The position numbers and the translations under genes are program-made. Shown here one piece after another: positions 28,697 through 33,199 of a stretch of DNA of 50,405 nucleotides. Position 1 is the stretch's first letter, and each line of letters starts with the position of its first letter. The stretch is taken from contig JAZQKG010000089.1 of assembly GCA_045542035.1 (NCBI GenBank), forward strand, positions 1-50,405. Direction: 5' to 3'. The DNA comes from Eubacteriales bacterium. Its GTDB lineage: Bacteria; Bacillota; Clostridia; Oscillospirales; CAG-272. The notes beneath the pieces are model-generated. The model searched no databases. It had not been told where the DNA came from and saw only the letters and a list, made by a program, of their open reading frames with translations.

Positions 28697-29146
28697 TTTC
28701 TTTTTTGTCATACTTACTTTAATAACTGCTTTTTTAATTGTCTTCGGTTCTGCTGCAGCTCTGTTGGGCAGATGAGCTTCTTCGGGATAGAGAATAATTG
28801 CTTCACCGCTTGTATATATAACGGCTTCTGATTTCTCGTCAAAATTGTAAAGAGCCGCATCTTCGCCTTCCGAATAAGGCTTCATTATTCCAAGTTCTGC
28901 TTTGGGAGTATAGTAGATCTTTTCATCTCCCGATATAAGATACTGTATGTCAACGTACTTTTCATGCGCTTCCATCAGAGGCTTTTCTTCTTTTGTATCG
29001 CATGACTGAACGTTAACGTAACAGAATTCACCGAATTCGTATCTTTTGTTTTCGGTATCGCAATCTGCTCCCCTCAAAAACTCGATTGCTTCGTTTGGAA
29101 TGTCAAAATATTTTTTAATGTCTTCAATTCTTGTTAGCTTTATCAT
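28694..29146 (-). CDS. YhcH/YjgK/YiaL (DUF386) family protein
   Basis: EAHEKYVDIQY..SGDE, D...Y, YPEEAHLP, KKAVIKV. Confidence 0.92.
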   Translation of the reverse strand: MIKLTRIEDIKKYFDIPNEAIEFLRGADCDTENKRYEFGEFCYVNVQSCDTKEEKPLMEAHEKYVDIQYLISGDEKIYYTPKAELGIMKPYSEGEDAALYNFDEKSEAVIYTSGEAIILYPEEAHLPNRAAAEPKTIKKAVIKVSMTKKK

Positions 29147-29173
29147 ACTGTTTCTCCGTTTATATTTTTGTAA

Positions 29174-29445
29174 TTAAAATTCAAGATTACAGCTAATCTC
29201 GTACTCGCCGTATCCGGCGGAAATAATGAAGCTGTCTGCGGCTTTGATGCTTTTATTTTCGATTTTGCCGTTGCCGCTTGTGCAGCACACGCAGACAAAG
29301 GAATCACCATCTCTGAAAAAGCTTGAATGAGCTTGTATAATATGTTTAGTAACCGTGAAATATTCACACGCCCCCAGAGTTTCGCCTTTGAAAACAGTCT
29401 TTCCATTTCTGATTTTGGAATAAGTGAAAGAGTCTTTAAATAGTC
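29174..29445 (-). pseudogene. C-terminal remnant of a class I mannose-6-phosphate isomerase-like cupin
   Basis: An alternative frame with no ATG reads LGACEYFTVTKH...DSFVCVCCTSGNGKIENKSIKAADSFIISAGYGEYEISCNLEF*. Confidence 0.55.
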
Positions 29446-29606
29446 ATCTGTTGATCGGCTGTCAGTAAGCTTACAGGCAGGACGGACTATTCCTGTCTTA
29501 TTAAATGGCAGATCCATAGCAAAAACGGCATTAAACCTCTTTATCTATAATTCTGCGCGTTCTTGTGAGCTTTCATGGGCATCGGCGCTATCTCAATAAT
29601 GATCGG

Positions 29607-30317
29607 TTATACAATTTTTTGCTTCTGACTTTTTATGTTTCTTATTTTATTTTCAAAATTCAGTTTTTGAATAAATTGAGCGGTGGCAACGTCTTCCGTA
29701 TCTATCCATTCTTCTCCGTATGTAAATATAGCCATTCTGGGACCCGTGTCGTTCATAAGTGTGTTTTTATCTTTATATTTGAAAAGGAAAAGCAGGGTGA
29801 CGTATATATCTCCGGAGCATCCGCTTATATGACATGAAAATATTAGGGAGAGAATTATGTATAGCGCCGGGTTAATAAGGAAGGTGATAATGAGAGCGGG
29901 AATAAACAAAACTGTGAAAAGTATAAGCGGAGCAGTTACCGAAACAAGAGCTGTTTTGCGGTATGTAAATATGTGAGGAACACCGCAAAAAGCACAGCTC
30001 CAGCTTAGACCGAAGGTAAGCTTTTCTCCGGTCAGTTTTTTGTATGCAAAACCGTGAGTCAACTCGTGAAGTATGATGTAAACGATGTATCCTGTGAAAA
30101 AGAACAAGAAAATCGTTATAAATTTGTTCCCCTCAAGAGCGCCTAAAAAATCATTTTTGCGAAGCATAACAGGAAGCGCGCATACAGCTAAAGCCAGAGC
30201 AAGAATAACGAACGATATAAGTGTCAGAATCAATCCGAACAAAGCGTTTGTTGCGTCTATGGATTTTTCAAGTCGGTAACCTTTAGGCAGTTCCTTTTCA
30301 AATGTCTTTTCCTTCAT
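29607..30317 (-). CDS. DUF3267-like membrane zinc metalloprotease
   Basis: HELTHG (HExxH), APL, GCSGDIY, NDTG motifs; multiple TMs. Confidence 0.85.
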   Translation of the reverse strand: MKEKTFEKELPKGYRLEKSIDATNALFGLILTLISFVILALALAVCALPVMLRKNDFLGALEGNKFITIFLFFFTGYIVYIILHELTHGFAYKKLTGEKLTFGLSWSCAFCGVPHIFTYRKTALVSVTAPLILFTVLFIPALIITFLINPALYIILSLIFSCHISGCSGDIYVTLLFLFKYKDKNTLMNDTGPRMAIFTYGEEWIDTEDVATAQFIQKLNFENKIRNIKSQKQKIV

Positions 30318-30396
30318 TTCATTTCTCCTTTCGATATGTTATACTAAACTGCTGTAAAATGAATTTTTAAGTTTTGCTCGAAAATCACTTTTGCCC

Positions 30397-30750
30397 CTAT
30401 GTGTTTTCCTTTGCGGTGGTGATGGAAGCAATAAGCAATTTACGGATTTTACTGCATTTTGCGAACATATCCTTATACTCTTCCTCGGTTATCATGCGCG
30501 TGTCTTTAAACAAGCCGAGCCAATAATCGGTTTCGTAGCACTCTTTCAAAGCAATTTGAAATTTATTGATAAAATCCGCTTTACTTGCCGCATAGTTTGT
30601 TTCGTGGATATTTGCACCGATGCTTGTACCGCTTCGCAATACTTGGTTTAATAATACGTTGCTTTTACGGTTTTCTTTAATTTCGGTGCAAAGATTAACG
30701 ATATCAACGGCAAATTGTTTTGATAAATCAACTAAAAAGTTTTCTTTCAT
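30397..30750 (-). CDS. Four-helix-bundle protein (23S rRNA IVP-like family)
   Basis: SKQFAVDIV, NQVLRSGTSIGANIHE, SKADFINKFQIALKECYETDYWL; GAGGT RBS before ATG 30750. Confidence 0.92.
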   Translation of the reverse strand: MKENFLVDLSKQFAVDIVNLCTEIKENRKSNVLLNQVLRSGTSIGANIHETNYAASKADFINKFQIALKECYETDYWLGLFKDTRMITEEEYKDMFAKCSKIRKLLIASITTAKENT

Positions 30751-30767
30751 CGTAAGACCTCGTTTGA

Positions 30768-30960
30768 ATGATTTGACACTTTGTGTCATGAATTGATGCT
30801 GTCGCATCATGATTTCTCGTCGGCGTTCCGCCTCCTCCATGAATTGACGCTACGCGTCATTGAATGAATCGCGCATCCAACCTTATGCCCCGCAGGGCAA
30901 TTCATGGCGAGGCCAATTCATGAGTGCCACGCACTCAAATCATGCGCTCGCGCAATTCAT
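30768..30960. repeat. Inverted double array of ATGAWTT-linked mini-hairpins
   Basis: Left: ATGATTT/ATGAATT at 30768, 30788, 30809, 30839 and ATGAATC at 30864. Right: AATTCAT/AAATCAT at 30899, 30915, 30937, 30954. Linkers are separated by short GC hairpins. Confidence 0.9.
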
Positions 30961-32335
30961 TGTCGAGTCCTCGTGTCAGAGACACGACGGACTCGACGTG
31001 TCCTGTCGCGGGAAACAAATCAAACGGTGTTACTTCACCACAGGAGTACCCGAGGGCTTTGAATCGAGCTGCGTCTCTTGCGAGAGTTGTGGGGTTGCAC
31101 GAGATATATACGATGCGCTTAGGAGAGAGGGAAGCGACGTAATTTATCAGTCTTTCGTCGCAGCCAGCGCGCGGCGGGTCAAGCACCACGATTGTGGGCT
31201 TGATTTGCTTTCCGAGCTCTCTTTCTGCGTTGTCGAGGAGCTTTTCTGTGTTCGATGCGTCACCCGTGTAGAATTTAGCGTTTGTTAGATTTGCATTTTC
31301 TGCGTTTTCTCTTGCGCACAAAACGGCGCTTTCAATTATCTCAATGCCGATAAGCTCACCGACCTCATTCGCCATTGAAAGCCCGATTGAGCCGGCTCCG
31401 CAATACAAGTCGAGCAAGGTGTCGTTTTTTGTCGGCGCGGCAAGCTCCTTTGCTTTAGCGTAAAGCAATTCCGCTGCATCATGATTGACTTGATAAAATG
31501 AGGGAGCGGTTATTTTGAGTTTGACACCTCCAAGTATATCGTAAATATAATCTCTTCCGTACAAGGTTATGAATTTGTTTCCGAGAATAACGTTAGTCTT
31601 GTCTTTGTTGGTGTTCAAAAGAATCCCAACAATGTTTGTAAATTGCTTGTTTATAGAATTTACAAGCTCATTGGAGTGGGGAAGCGCAGTTCCGTTAATA
31701 ACGAGGGTAAGAAGTATTTCATCGGTCAGCTCACCCCGCCTCAAATATATGTGCCTTAGCAGACCTGCGTTTTTTTCTTCGTCATATACTGAGATATCGT
31801 GTTTTTTGAAAAAGTCGGCAAGGTGATTTATAACGTCGGCAAATATTTTTGGAGCAAGAGGACAGTCTCTTGCTTCTGTAACTCTGTGGCTTTTTGGCGC
31901 GTAAAAACCGATAACGTAGTCTCCGTTTTTATCTTTAGATATAGGATATTGAGCTTTGTTTCGGTATTCGTTGACAGACGGAGAGGCTACAAGCTTGGTA
32001 ATAACAGCATCGGAAAGCCCTGCTTTTACGAAAGCCTCTTGTACGTCATTCCTTTTTATTTCTTTCTCGTGTTCGTATGAAATCTTTTTATACGCGCAGC
32101 TTGTACAAGCATTGACATAGCAACGGTTTTCGTCTCTTATCGGTGATTTTTTAATAAAATTCTCTACACGCCCCACGGCATAAGAGGATGACGTTTTGAT
32201 TATTCTTGCGTTAACTTCGTCTCCCGTGACAGCGCCGGAAACAAAGATAACAAGCCCCTCGTTGCGACCAACGCCAAAACCAAGGTTGGTTATAGAAGTT
32301 ATTTCAAGTTTAATTATATCGTTCTTTTTAATCAT
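30935..32335 (-). CDS. rlmD: 23S rRNA (uracil-1939-C5)-methyltransferase
   Basis: TRAM domain, C..CTSC Fe-S motif, YRNKAQ, SFYQVN, DLYCGAG, DPPRAG, YISCNP, DLFP.TGHVE. Confidence 0.95.
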   Translation of the reverse strand: MIKKNDIIKLEITSITNLGFGVGRNEGLVIFVSGAVTGDEVNARIIKTSSSYAVGRVENFIKKSPIRDENRCYVNACTSCAYKKISYEHEKEIKRNDVQEAFVKAGLSDAVITKLVASPSVNEYRNKAQYPISKDKNGDYVIGFYAPKSHRVTEARDCPLAPKIFADVINHLADFFKKHDISVYDEEKNAGLLRHIYLRRGELTDEILLTLVINGTALPHSNELVNSINKQFTNIVGILLNTNKDKTNVILGNKFITLYGRDYIYDILGGVKLKITAPSFYQVNHDAAELLYAKAKELAAPTKNDTLLDLYCGAGSIGLSMANEVGELIGIEIIESAVLCARENAENANLTNAKFYTGDASNTEKLLDNAERELGKQIKPTIVVLDPPRAGCDERLINYVASLSPKRIVYISCNPTTLARDAARFKALGYSCGEVTPFDLFPATGHVESVVSLTRGLDNELRERMI

Positions 32336-32362
32336 AATTCTAAAAGCAAACAATTATTTGCG

Positions 32363-33199
32363 TTATATAAATTCCTCTTTAAATTTTTTTCGCCATTCCT
32401 TAGGCGTTACACCGAATGTTGCGCGAAAAGTTTTCGTAAAATACGATGCGTCTGTAAAGCCTGTTTCCTCAGCAATTTCGGCAATGCTTTTTTTTGTAAG
32501 CTCAAGCATTTTTTTAGATGCCTTGAGTCTGTAAGATATAATATACTGCCTGAGCGTTATGCCTTTCTTTTCTTTAAGCACCCGACTTACGTAGAACGGA
32601 TGATAACCGAAAATAGCTCCGATCTCGGTATTTGATATCTCTTCCGAATAGTTTTCACGGATATACGTGTCAAGCGATTCAACCATTCTTGCCGGTAATG
32701 CGTTTTCACTTACCGTTTCTGATACTTTGAGTAATATCAGCTTGAGCATAGCGGATATTTCCGCGCGCCACTGTCCCTCTGCCGACGTTGCAATGTTTCC
32801 CATTCTTATAAACGTGTCTCGCTCTGATTCCATATCCTCAAGTATGTGAACGACGTCAAACGGCGCAAAGTCACCGGTATGGCATCTTGAAGGCTCAAAG
32901 TCTTCCGGTGCTGACGGTGGGATTTTTTCTGTCTCATTACTCCAGCAGTCCGTGGGGTCAAACGTTATTATTGCCGCCCGCAGATATTGAGCTTTCAGCT
33001 TGTATTTTACTCCAGCGGGGATGTATAAAAGATGTCCCGGAGTCATATGAAATTTCTTGTTGTTTTCAATATTTACGGCAATATCTCCCGATATTAAATA
33101 TATAACTTTGCAATCATACGCTTGGCATTCGTCGGCTCTGTTTATCGTTTCATATATGCCGACAGAGCGTATAAATGGGTTAAGTTTTGAAATTTCCAT
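32363..33199 (-). CDS. AraC family transcriptional regulator
   Basis: N-terminal cupin; C-terminal SIAEIAEETGFTDASYFTKTFRATFGVTP. Start moved to MEISKLN. Confidence 0.93.
   Translation of the reverse strand: MEISKLNPFIRSVGIYETINRADECQAYDCKVIYLISGDIAVNIENNKKFHMTPGHLLYIPAGVKYKLKAQYLRAAIITFDPTDCWSNETEKIPPSAPEDFEPSRCHTGDFAPFDVVHILEDMESERDTFIRMGNIATSAEGQWRAEISAMLKLILLKVSETVSENALPARMVESLDTYIRENYSEEISNTEIGAIFGYHPFYVSRVLKEKKGITLRQYIISYRLKASKKMLELTKKSIAEIAEETGFTDASYFTKTFRATFGVTPKEWRKKFKEEFI

Follow-up and report, generated by a model that had tools for sequence, protein, structure and literature searches.

The hairpin-ladder array between rlmD and a small four-helix-bundle protein (IVP) gene in the 50,405-nt stretch of DNA analysed here (the window) forms, together with that gene, one conserved two-part module. 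In the reading that we favour, and that we hold to be about evenly poised between right and wrong, the array would be a cis binding platform of a pentameric, Avd-like IVP, most likely in the form of RNA, carried in a small cassette without an adjoining recombinase or reverse transcriptase (RT). What is newly recognised is a protein partner and an insertion signature for an element of the Gut-1 type, the Gut-1 motif itself being already catalogued. The rlmD gene, the array, the IVP gene and a DUF3267 gene all lie on the minus strand, and the features of the locus are as follows.

30935..32353, minus strand: gene for an rlmD/RumA-type 23S rRNA (uracil-5) methyltransferase, an open reading frame matching Pfam tRNA_U5-meth_tr (1.3e-24) and TRAM
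30962..30997, minus strand: tail hairpin of 36 nt, the rlmD codons for (H)VESVVSL plus their reverse complement, recognised from inverted repeats (arms 30962-30977 and 30981-30997, one bulged C)
30887..30960, minus strand: distal arm of the array (rlmD side), with linkers at 30954-60, 30937-43, 30915-21 and 30899-905 reading ATGAWTT on the minus strand (sequence and inverted repeats)
30944-53, 30922-36, 30906-14 and 30887-98, minus strand: hairpins of the distal arm
30859..30886, minus strand: array centre of about 28 nt with a degenerate fifth linker (GATTCAT on the minus strand, 30864-70), recognised from sequence
30768..30858, minus strand: proximal arm of the array (IVP side), with linkers at 30839-45, 30809-15, 30788-94 and 30768-74 reading AAWTCAT on the minus strand (sequence and inverted repeats)
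30846-58, 30816-38 (a GGAG..CGAG unit), 30795-808 and 30775-87, minus strand: hairpins of the proximal arm
30397..30750, minus strand: gene for the IVP, a four-helix-bundle protein of 117 aa (PF05635, TIGR02436), with start MKENF at 30750 and Shine-Dalgarno GAGG at 30758-61
30318..30396, minus strand: conserved non-coding block (..CATTTTACAGCAGTTTAGTATAACATATCGAA plus ribosome-binding site), the downstream edge of the inserted segment before DUF3267, kept in relatives
29607..30317, minus strand: DUF3267 gene

Positions 30768-30960 hold nine copies of a 7-nt linker (ATGAWTT, later its complement) with eight differing mini-hairpins between them. On the plus strand, the distal block carries AATTCAT at 30899, 30915 and 30954 and AAATCAT at 30937, and its hairpins are GCCC-CGCA-GGGC, GGC-GAG-GCC, GAGTGC-CAC-GCACTC and GCGC-TC-GCGC. 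The proximal block carries ATGATTT at 30768 and 30809, further linkers at 30788 and 30839, and ATGAATC at 30864, with the hairpins GACAC-TTT-GTGTC, GATGC-TGTC-GCATC, GGCG-TTC-CGCC (within CTCGTC..TCCTCC) and GACGC-TAC-GCGTC. The eight hairpins and the linker coordinates had been listed in an earlier note on this DNA, and all are present in the sequence as given there. That note had the array begin past the end of rlmD; the rlmD reading frame extends nine codons into it and has its stop there, at 30935-30937. As to the extent of the element, the note was right about the array, and the 36-nt hairpin at 30962-30997 also belongs to it. The last linker ends 7 nt ahead of the IVP Shine-Dalgarno. Exact ATGAATT/AATTCAT sites number 19 in the window, which is about chance (16.5 expected), and five of them fall inside 170 nt of the array. 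The arm architecture of the distal type was found in 28 distinct loci, and both the unit order of the proximal arm and the centre (GAATTGC..GCAATTC) are kept in relatives. The block CATTTTACAGCAGTTTAGTATAACATATCGAA has one exact match in the window, at 30330-30361. In metatranscriptome contigs (one RNA run, Logan contigs of relatives) a depth peak lies over 30742-30843, with strand, ends and level not readable; it is a hint at most, and stretches lacking coverage carry no weight.

The window IVP matched PF05635 over residues 7-107 (E 2.4e-25; 89.2 bits against a cut-off of 33.8) and TIGR02436 (E 8.6e-29; 99.9 bits against a cut-off of 24). A promoter scan of the window detected no promoter or terminator among rlmD, the array and IVP, suggesting that the array is transcribed together with both genes. 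Since there is no room for a promoter between the array and IVP, IVP would be read through from rlmD.

The association between array and protein was examined from the side of the protein, at the 80 nearest IVP loci from different GTDB species, which came from gut MAGs labelled Acutalibacteraceae, Oscillospiraceae, Christensenellaceae and similar. Arrays were called with a strict detector that asks for an exact 6-mer at least three times in direct and then at least three times in inverted orientation. This inspection of the flanks of four-helix-bundle homologues, which the earlier note had recommended, placed a strict array within 400 nt upstream of 46 of 76 IVP genes, downstream of 0 of 75 and far upstream of 0 of 72. 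When any 6-mer repeated at least five times was counted at 141 IVP loci, the figures were 104 of 130 upstream, 11 of 135 downstream and 6 of 92 far upstream. With a crude detector, arrays were called at 17 of 40 PF05635 loci taken in rank order, 16 of them right at the IVP start; at least seven further arrays among these 40 loci were missed by the detector and are visible by eye. The linker types at the rank-ordered loci include GTGATG, CTAAAT, ATGAAG, GTGAAG, ATGATG, TAATGA, AGTTAT and GGTATT, and IVP-associated arrays as a whole comprise at least 17 linker classes. IVP loci devoid of hairpin arrays carried contiguous period-7 repeats in all 16 examined, many of them reaching into the Shine-Dalgarno sequence, and contiguous period-7 repeats were also found with more distant IVPs on IMG/VR contigs.

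The linker class co-diverges with the IVP sequence. It was common to 44 of 53 IVP pairs with at least 80% identity, versus 6 of 1524 pairs below 60%. The coupling to four-helix-bundle (PF05635) genes that had been proposed from a single locus is therefore borne out in many species and with many linker types, the class changing along with the protein. Genes of PF05635 or TIGR02436 were present in 74 of the 101 genomes searched, at 1-10 copies per genome. We found no conserved gene downstream of IVP, where the neighbours are diverse, and the PADLOC defence models gave no match for three IVPs. At many loci a strong sigma-70 promoter (TTGACA-17-TATAAT with TG) is located between the array and IVP, with a terminator-like hairpin upstream. 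At those loci the array consequently lies outside the IVP mRNA and may not be transcribed.

The array was then considered as a folded structure. The 261-nt array strand gave a folding energy of -107.4 kcal/mol (z = -4.83), which none of 200 shuffles equalled. Among 106 distinct arrays, 317 of 533 inter-linker segments (59%) close with at least four Watson-Crick pairs, as against 5.2% in shuffles, and 480 of the 533 are distinct in sequence; that the hairpins differ while their pairing is kept, as first noticed in the window, is hence true across the 106 arrays. Within a single array, identical hairpin segments were seen in only 2 of 1250 pairs. The stems are near-purely Watson-Crick (G.T makes up 2-3% of pairs) and the loops are strongly asymmetric, with TNC on the strand bearing the ATGAAT-like linker, equivalent to GNA on its complement. 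Seen from the strand opposite to the Rfam orientation of Gut-1, C-GNA-G loops are favoured. C-GNA-G is a hyper-stable DNA mini-hairpin, and the near-pure Watson-Crick stems with GNA loops fit DNA as well as RNA. In the tail hairpin, 13 pairs keep their pairing via double changes among 13 related loci. The maintenance of stems despite differing sequence, the orthogonality of the stems and the asymmetry of the loops argue for selection on the folding of a single strand, and are compatible with either RNA or DNA.

Pairing between the linkers fared differently. The earlier note had them pair in nested order, and we observed no covariation for this; RNAalifold does draw linker helices, but each such pair is invariant. 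As all linkers of an array are identical, they vary only in concert and cannot lend covariation support to nested pairing. The AAATCAT/ATGATTT change that had been regarded as compensatory proved private to the window copy: in 20 orientable arrays, proximal AAATCAT occurred in 28 of 76 cases and distal ATGATTT in 2 of 71, an imbalance that speaks against strict linker pairing. With its pairs invariant and AAATCAT uncompensated in the other arm, nested linker pairing as a selected structure was dropped. The predicted long stem with stacked four-way junctions was recovered in part only by minimum-free-energy folding.

Concerning known RNA families, an Rfam search of window positions 29000-33000 gave no family at E≤1. 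The ATGAATT array of the window went unrecognised by the model of Gut-1 (RF01706) and does not reach its gathering score (≥50 bits), and the link to Gut-1 therefore comes from sister arrays only. The Gut-1 consensus reads UGAAAU-hairpin-GUGAAAU-hairpin-GUGAAAU-hairpin-UGAAAU, that is, three mini-hairpins parted by a repeated 7-nt linker (GUGAAAU), as in one arm of an array. The arms in the window have the same architecture, at least three mini-hairpins with an identical linker of about 7 nt between them. In GTGAAAT/ATGAAAT-type arrays that precede IVP (for example at locus L131), RF01706 has a match in each of the two arms, and it also matches 8 of 20 diverse IVP loci. In the genome from which the window derives it has five matches, one of them at C35:196-265 with 70 bits, and the window array is not among them. 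Judged by these matches, Gut-1 is one arm of one subtype (GTGAAAT) of the array family. To our knowledge, Gut-1 has been an orphan motif since 2010. In the passages on the motif in Weinberg et al. 2010 (PMC2864571), it is rated as 'certainly' an RNA with no cis-regulatory role, its occurrence is given as 'human gut only', and a single 77-nt arm with no partner is presented. That description mentions neither a second, inverted arm nor the tail hairpin, the diversity of linkers or the linkage to IVP. We found no full-text literature tying Gut-1 or heptad arrays to IVP genes, and the supplement of Weinberg 2010 may mention gene context.

We also examined where the modules are inserted. At 30 rlmD loci of the genus, 15 carried an array at the rlmD tail, of five linker types (ATGAATT, GTGAAGTT, GTGATAT, GCGATAT and TCGATAT). 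Comparison of the junction between rlmD and DUF3267 in related genomes, another suggestion of the earlier note, yielded array-less rlmD tails that end in ..HVESVVCLTRK*, lack the tail hairpin and are followed by the same conserved non-coding block that precedes DUF3267 in the window. Extra copies of the rlmD tail were present 1-1.5 kb downstream at 11 of the 30 rlmD loci, so that the earlier statement on rlmD 3' ends as integration hotspots in Bacillota is borne out for this genus. The tails of queA are duplicated likewise, and the host-tail duplication amounts to about 20 nt or more at both queA and rlmD; no short target-site duplication was seen at the arrays, which display this long duplication instead. 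Of the 57 genomes in which rlmD was matched, at least 20 have an IVP gene no more than about 1.3 kb downstream of it.

The 36-nt tail hairpin marks the boundary of the element and is likely a palindromic att-like site. A hairpin made of the host tail and its complement also opens the arrays after queA and a GGGtGRT gene, and probably those after spoIVB, and its sequence follows the tail of each host gene. The insertion signature is thus an inverted copy of the last codons of the host gene. Stable-RNA genes serve as hosts too, with modules placed after tRNA, tmRNA or RNase P RNA genes, beyond their terminators. At two loci (L102 and L103) a large serine recombinase gene runs into an rlmD-like tail directly upstream of array and IVP, and at two others (L194:1216-1696 and L197) inverted copies of the arms enclose cargo. 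No recombinase, RT or transposase consistently adjoins the arrays or IVP (the 264 flanking ORFs scanned contained no RT), as expected of the small cassette at gene tails, with neither recombinase nor RT beside it, that had been envisaged. The sole RVT_1 match in the source genome (C13:79125-79574) is weak (E 6e-8) and is situated on another contig. The Y1/RAYT transposase PF01797 was detected in one of five array-bearing genomes (G062), and not in G000, G023, G038 or G056, each of which is 64-87% complete. The search for linkage to RAYT transposases or RTs that the note had called for hence brought no consistent association, and a RAYT/Y1 transposase was rejected as a general driver.

Arrays also occur away from IVP genes. 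In the whole 1.55-Mb source genome, the strict detector responded in 6 of 7609 400-nt intervals; five were at three true arrays, and the remaining one, on contig C61, was inspected and discarded as a false positive. The genome contains a second ATGAATT-type array, an orphan without IVP at C10:815-990, and two arrays with (G/A)TGAAAT linkers on contigs C34 and C35. Of 101 related genomes, 26 contain a three-linker pattern, at as many as 25 places in one genome; a reversed control pattern had no match. In 28 parsed loci the architecture is constant, consisting of the tail hairpin, 3-5 units of linker and hairpin, the centre and 3-5 inverted units. IVP adjoins 1 of the 28 copies selected by this pattern, the other flanks being mostly unrelated housekeeping genes. 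Orphans of the ATGAATT type are numerous in genomes G062 and G038, and no ATGAATT array was present at the four IVP loci examined in each (one locus per genome was unreadable), indicating that arrays can persist and spread without a cognate IVP. The idea that an IVP mobilises or serves only the same-linker arrays of its own genome is unsupported, taking into account these orphans whose linker is absent at the readable IVP loci. Dispersal as a REP-like repeat unlinked to IVP had been named in the earlier note as evidence that would count against it. Dispersed orphans do exist, on C10 and in large numbers in G062 and G038, yet the coupling to IVP holds.

A profile built from 24 IVPs matched PDB 2RLD at 1.2e-50 and 2GSC at 2.3e-15, entries with five chains each, and by homology the window IVP is predicted to be homopentameric. 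We know of no function for PF05635/TIGR02436 proteins outside the Avd of DGRs. Avd forms a pentamer with positive charge, and its specific binding to a segment of non-coding RNA has been described (PMC6182149, in the part on Avd). According to the sections of a cryo-EM preprint that deal with this complex, Avd binds an RNA stem-loop via all five protomers, with flipped-out bases in the crevices between protomers, and putative Avd-binding stem-loops are present in 207 of 278 DGRs (bioRxiv 10.1101/2023.10.23.563531). This lends substance to the kinship with Avd that the earlier note had named. On the homology with Avd, the repeats at IVP starts, their extension into the Shine-Dalgarno sequence and the co-divergence of linker and protein we base the view, held at even odds, that the IVP pentamer has its cognate platform in the array. 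The rating of Gut-1, one arm of a sister subtype, as 'certainly' an RNA counts in its favour as well.

We infer physical binding of IVP to the array, in RNA form rather than as ssDNA or dsDNA, along with autoregulation and a means of spread, which might operate as follows. The platform would display identical linkers of 6-8 nt (here AUGAAUU / AAUUCAU) between short, differing mini-hairpins, usually four in one orientation and four inverted, and the pentamer would bind it, most likely as RNA. Four linkers is the commonest count in an arm (136 of 212 arms), and the numerology of five linkers for five subunits was accordingly found not usable. In the window the array would be part of the rlmD-IVP intercistronic transcript, ending 7 nt before the Shine-Dalgarno sequence, where bound IVP could control its own translation or the stability of the RNA and assemble an RNP. 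Orphan arrays would act as additional IVP binding sites. The module would insert at the 3' tails of conserved and stable-RNA genes, opening with an inverted copy of the last codons of its host. A broader idea, which we regard as possible and rather doubtful, is that PF05635 proteins are programmable, sequence-reading pentameric binders of RNA or ssDNA, each clade with its own word of about 7 nt, contiguous or spaced by hairpins. The orthogonal mini-hairpins would fold away and so bring the 7-nt words together; IVP and array would be an RT-less relative of Avd-Sp in a minimal cassette, and the orphans dispersed sites.

Three other explanations stay alive, owing to the loci with a promoter between array and IVP, to the Watson-Crick stems and their GNA loops, and to orphans that lack a cognate IVP. 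We consider it unlikely that the array is a free-standing structured ncRNA, an sRNA of the Gut-1 class, with IVP sharing its favoured surroundings behind tRNA and housekeeping genes or using it as an upstream insulator and no protein contact involved. The orphan arrays beside many unrelated genes and the promoter that parts array from IVP at many loci would agree with such an RNA, as would the rating of Gut-1, in the published passages on the motif, as a likely independent ncRNA that is not cis-regulatory (PMC2864571). A weak hint comes from metatranscriptome data, in which the summed depth was 128-466 on the proximal arm versus 2.5-30 in the flanks and DNA runs were flatter, although contig depth cannot rank the parts. 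A shared neighbourhood, however, does not account for the way in which the linker class tracks the IVP sequence, and it leaves unexplained both the period-7 repeats abutting the Shine-Dalgarno sequence in hairpin-free IVP subfamilies and the absence of arrays downstream of IVP (0 of 75).

If the array were a DNA site for recombination or integration, folded as a single strand or a cruciform (akin to attC or to an attP arm), small gene cassettes with IVP as their commonest cargo would be inserted at palindromic gene tails by a recombinase acting in trans. The tail hairpin as a near-perfect palindrome derived from the host gene tail, the duplicated rlmD and queA tails, the large serine recombinase genes at L102 and L103, the Watson-Crick stems with GNA loops and the arms flanking cargo at L194 and L197 would all fit. 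Nevertheless, no recombinase is consistently linked, the crossover could sit wholly in the tail palindrome with the array as a bystander, and neither the contiguous heptads over the Shine-Dalgarno sequence in other IVP subfamilies nor the co-divergence of linker and IVP is explained; we judge such a site to be quite improbable. At least 17 linker classes, each tied to its own IVP clade, and a fixed position relative to the IVP start are hard to reconcile with a functionless selfish repeat of the REP/BIME or MITE type, whose hairpins would arise from template-switch errors and whose linkage to IVP would reflect descent from a few loci. True REPs conserve the palindrome, and here the linker alone is conserved; Y1/RAYT was found in one of five array-bearing genomes, four of the five assemblies being 64-87% complete. 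The dispersal (26 of 101 genomes, as many as 25 matches in one of them, none for the reversed control), the intergenic location beside unrelated housekeeping genes and the inversion of the arms like terminal inverted repeats do resemble such an element, which we nonetheless deem very unlikely here.

Several known systems can be compared with the platform reading that we favour. In DGR targets a hairpin lies just past the 3' end of the gene, a placement comparable to that found here. There is a likeness to DGR Avd and its Sp RNA, where, in the sections of the preprint on the complex, the structured non-coding RNA neighbours the gene for the homologous, pentameric four-helix-bundle protein that binds it (bioRxiv 10.1101/2023.10.23.563531); binding of the array by IVP would be the counterpart. 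A DGR has an RT and TR/VR beside the Avd-like gene, whereas no RT lies beside IVP, the only RVT_1 match being the weak one on another contig, and the DGR RNA forms one long stem-loop instead of a multi-hairpin platform with repeated linkers. The 23S rRNA intervening sequences of Coxiella and Leptospira, in the portion of PMC4990558 devoted to them, likewise combine an S23p/IVP ORF in a small selfish element with stable-RNA genes and stem-forming flanks, but are located within helices of the 23S rRNA, are cut out by RNase III and are portrayed there without a repeated-linker array. The module here is found downstream of tRNA, tmRNA, RNase P or protein genes.

Similar to REP/BIME elements and MITEs, the arrays are short, dispersed, intergenic and hairpin-forming, often stand at gene 3' ends and form mosaics of alternating orientation. 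They differ from REP/BIME in that the linker and not the palindrome is the conserved part (480 distinct segments among 533), in that a consistent Y1/RAYT link is lacking, and in that they are tightly tied to one protein family. With regard to MITEs and other transposons defined by terminal inverted repeats, a short target-site duplication and a parent transposase, the arms here are inverted and can flank cargo, the host tail is duplicated at length where no short duplication was seen, and no transposase lies beside the arrays. An integron attC, a single imperfect hairpin with R/L core boxes recognised by IntI, is visibly different from eight hairpins with repeated linkers. As an analogy of working, ring proteins of the TRAP type bind tandem short RNA repeats; a homo-oligomeric ring could likewise read one repeat per subunit, with repeats running into the leader or the Shine-Dalgarno sequence of a regulated gene. 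TRAP is unrelated in fold and family, and the four repeats per arm here contrast with five subunits of a protein whose binding is putative.

Gut-1-type arrays and IVP belong together, and what is conserved in the arrays and diverges along with the protein is the repeated linker, not the sequence of the hairpins. The rlmD and queA tails in gut Oscillospirales constitute a hotspot of cassette accretion, which bears on the spread of small non-autonomous elements. The pairing gives both the IVP family, a very large orphan family, and the Gut-1 motif a directly testable partner. If PF05635 proteins should prove to be programmable binders, these two orphans would be accounted for together, and the arrays would represent a natural modular code of protein-RNA recognition.

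In related genomes, the last ~25-30 nt of rlmD (..THVESVVCL..) are present again 1-1.5 kb downstream of the real end of the gene. Such extra tail copies were found at 11 rlmD loci (L033, L038, L039, L041, L042, L043, L050, L054, L055, L058 and L060). At these loci, each extra copy is preceded by a conserved non-coding stretch and marks the beginning of a new small cassette, and some of the cassettes contain a second hairpin-ladder array with a different linker type. It looks as if small integrative cassettes have accumulated in tandem at a single att-like site.

A conserved non-coding block was also recognized in the window, ahead of the DUF3267 gene:
30318-30396, - strand: ~80-nt conserved non-coding block, promoter- or leader-like, with an RBS at its end, preceding DUF3267
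As this block is also found in related genomes after rlmD tails that lack an array, where it lies ahead of different genes, it may be a cassette leader in common use.

An rlmD-like tail also forms the end of large serine recombinase genes (..VETVICLNK*, ..THVECCVLL..) at two loci (L102:2-1000 and L103:1-1023). In both, the recombinase gene is directly followed by the tail hairpin, in which the last codons of the host gene pair with their complement, and then by the array and the gene for the four-helix-bundle protein IVP. The IVPs of these loci are the closest relatives of the window IVP, with 85-90% identity. Here a larger element has probably integrated into the same palindrome, the tail hairpin.

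Downstream of queA in related genomes, one or two tandem elements of ~150 nt are present where the hairpin ladder is absent (L202-L224). A duplicate of the queA tail delimits each of them, and the sequence at the far end of the element (..CTAATCAGCA) is the complement of this tail. These elements are a second type of small tail-targeting element. Arms can also enclose cargo. In one related genome (L194:1216-1696, G062:C25), a gene of ~77 aa with its own promoter and terminator is flanked by two mirror-image copies of one four-hairpin arm, an arrangement that is TIR-like, with cargo. A 3-kb version carries a LexA-like repressor (L197:1340-4506).

In the window's own genome, an orphan array directly adjoins a GC-rich, apparently structured non-coding region of ~300 nt (C10:480-780, L011), which has a promoter-like site and a terminator of its own. 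No Rfam family matched this region at the gathering threshold, and an 89-nt part of it recurs ~500 nt away with 92% identity.

The IVP adjoining another array of this genome (C35:425-586, L229) is a 53-aa remnant with an internal deletion, and that on C28 (7493-7801) is interrupted by an in-frame TAG; the latter belongs to the heptad-repeat type, with four upstream copies of TTGAAAA. The window IVP may therefore be the sole intact copy in the assembly. In PMC10910872, '23S rRNA IVP' is one of the proteins listed as having an enhanced score for association with CRISPR arrays; we speculate that IVP-adjacent repeat arrays might have contributed to this score.
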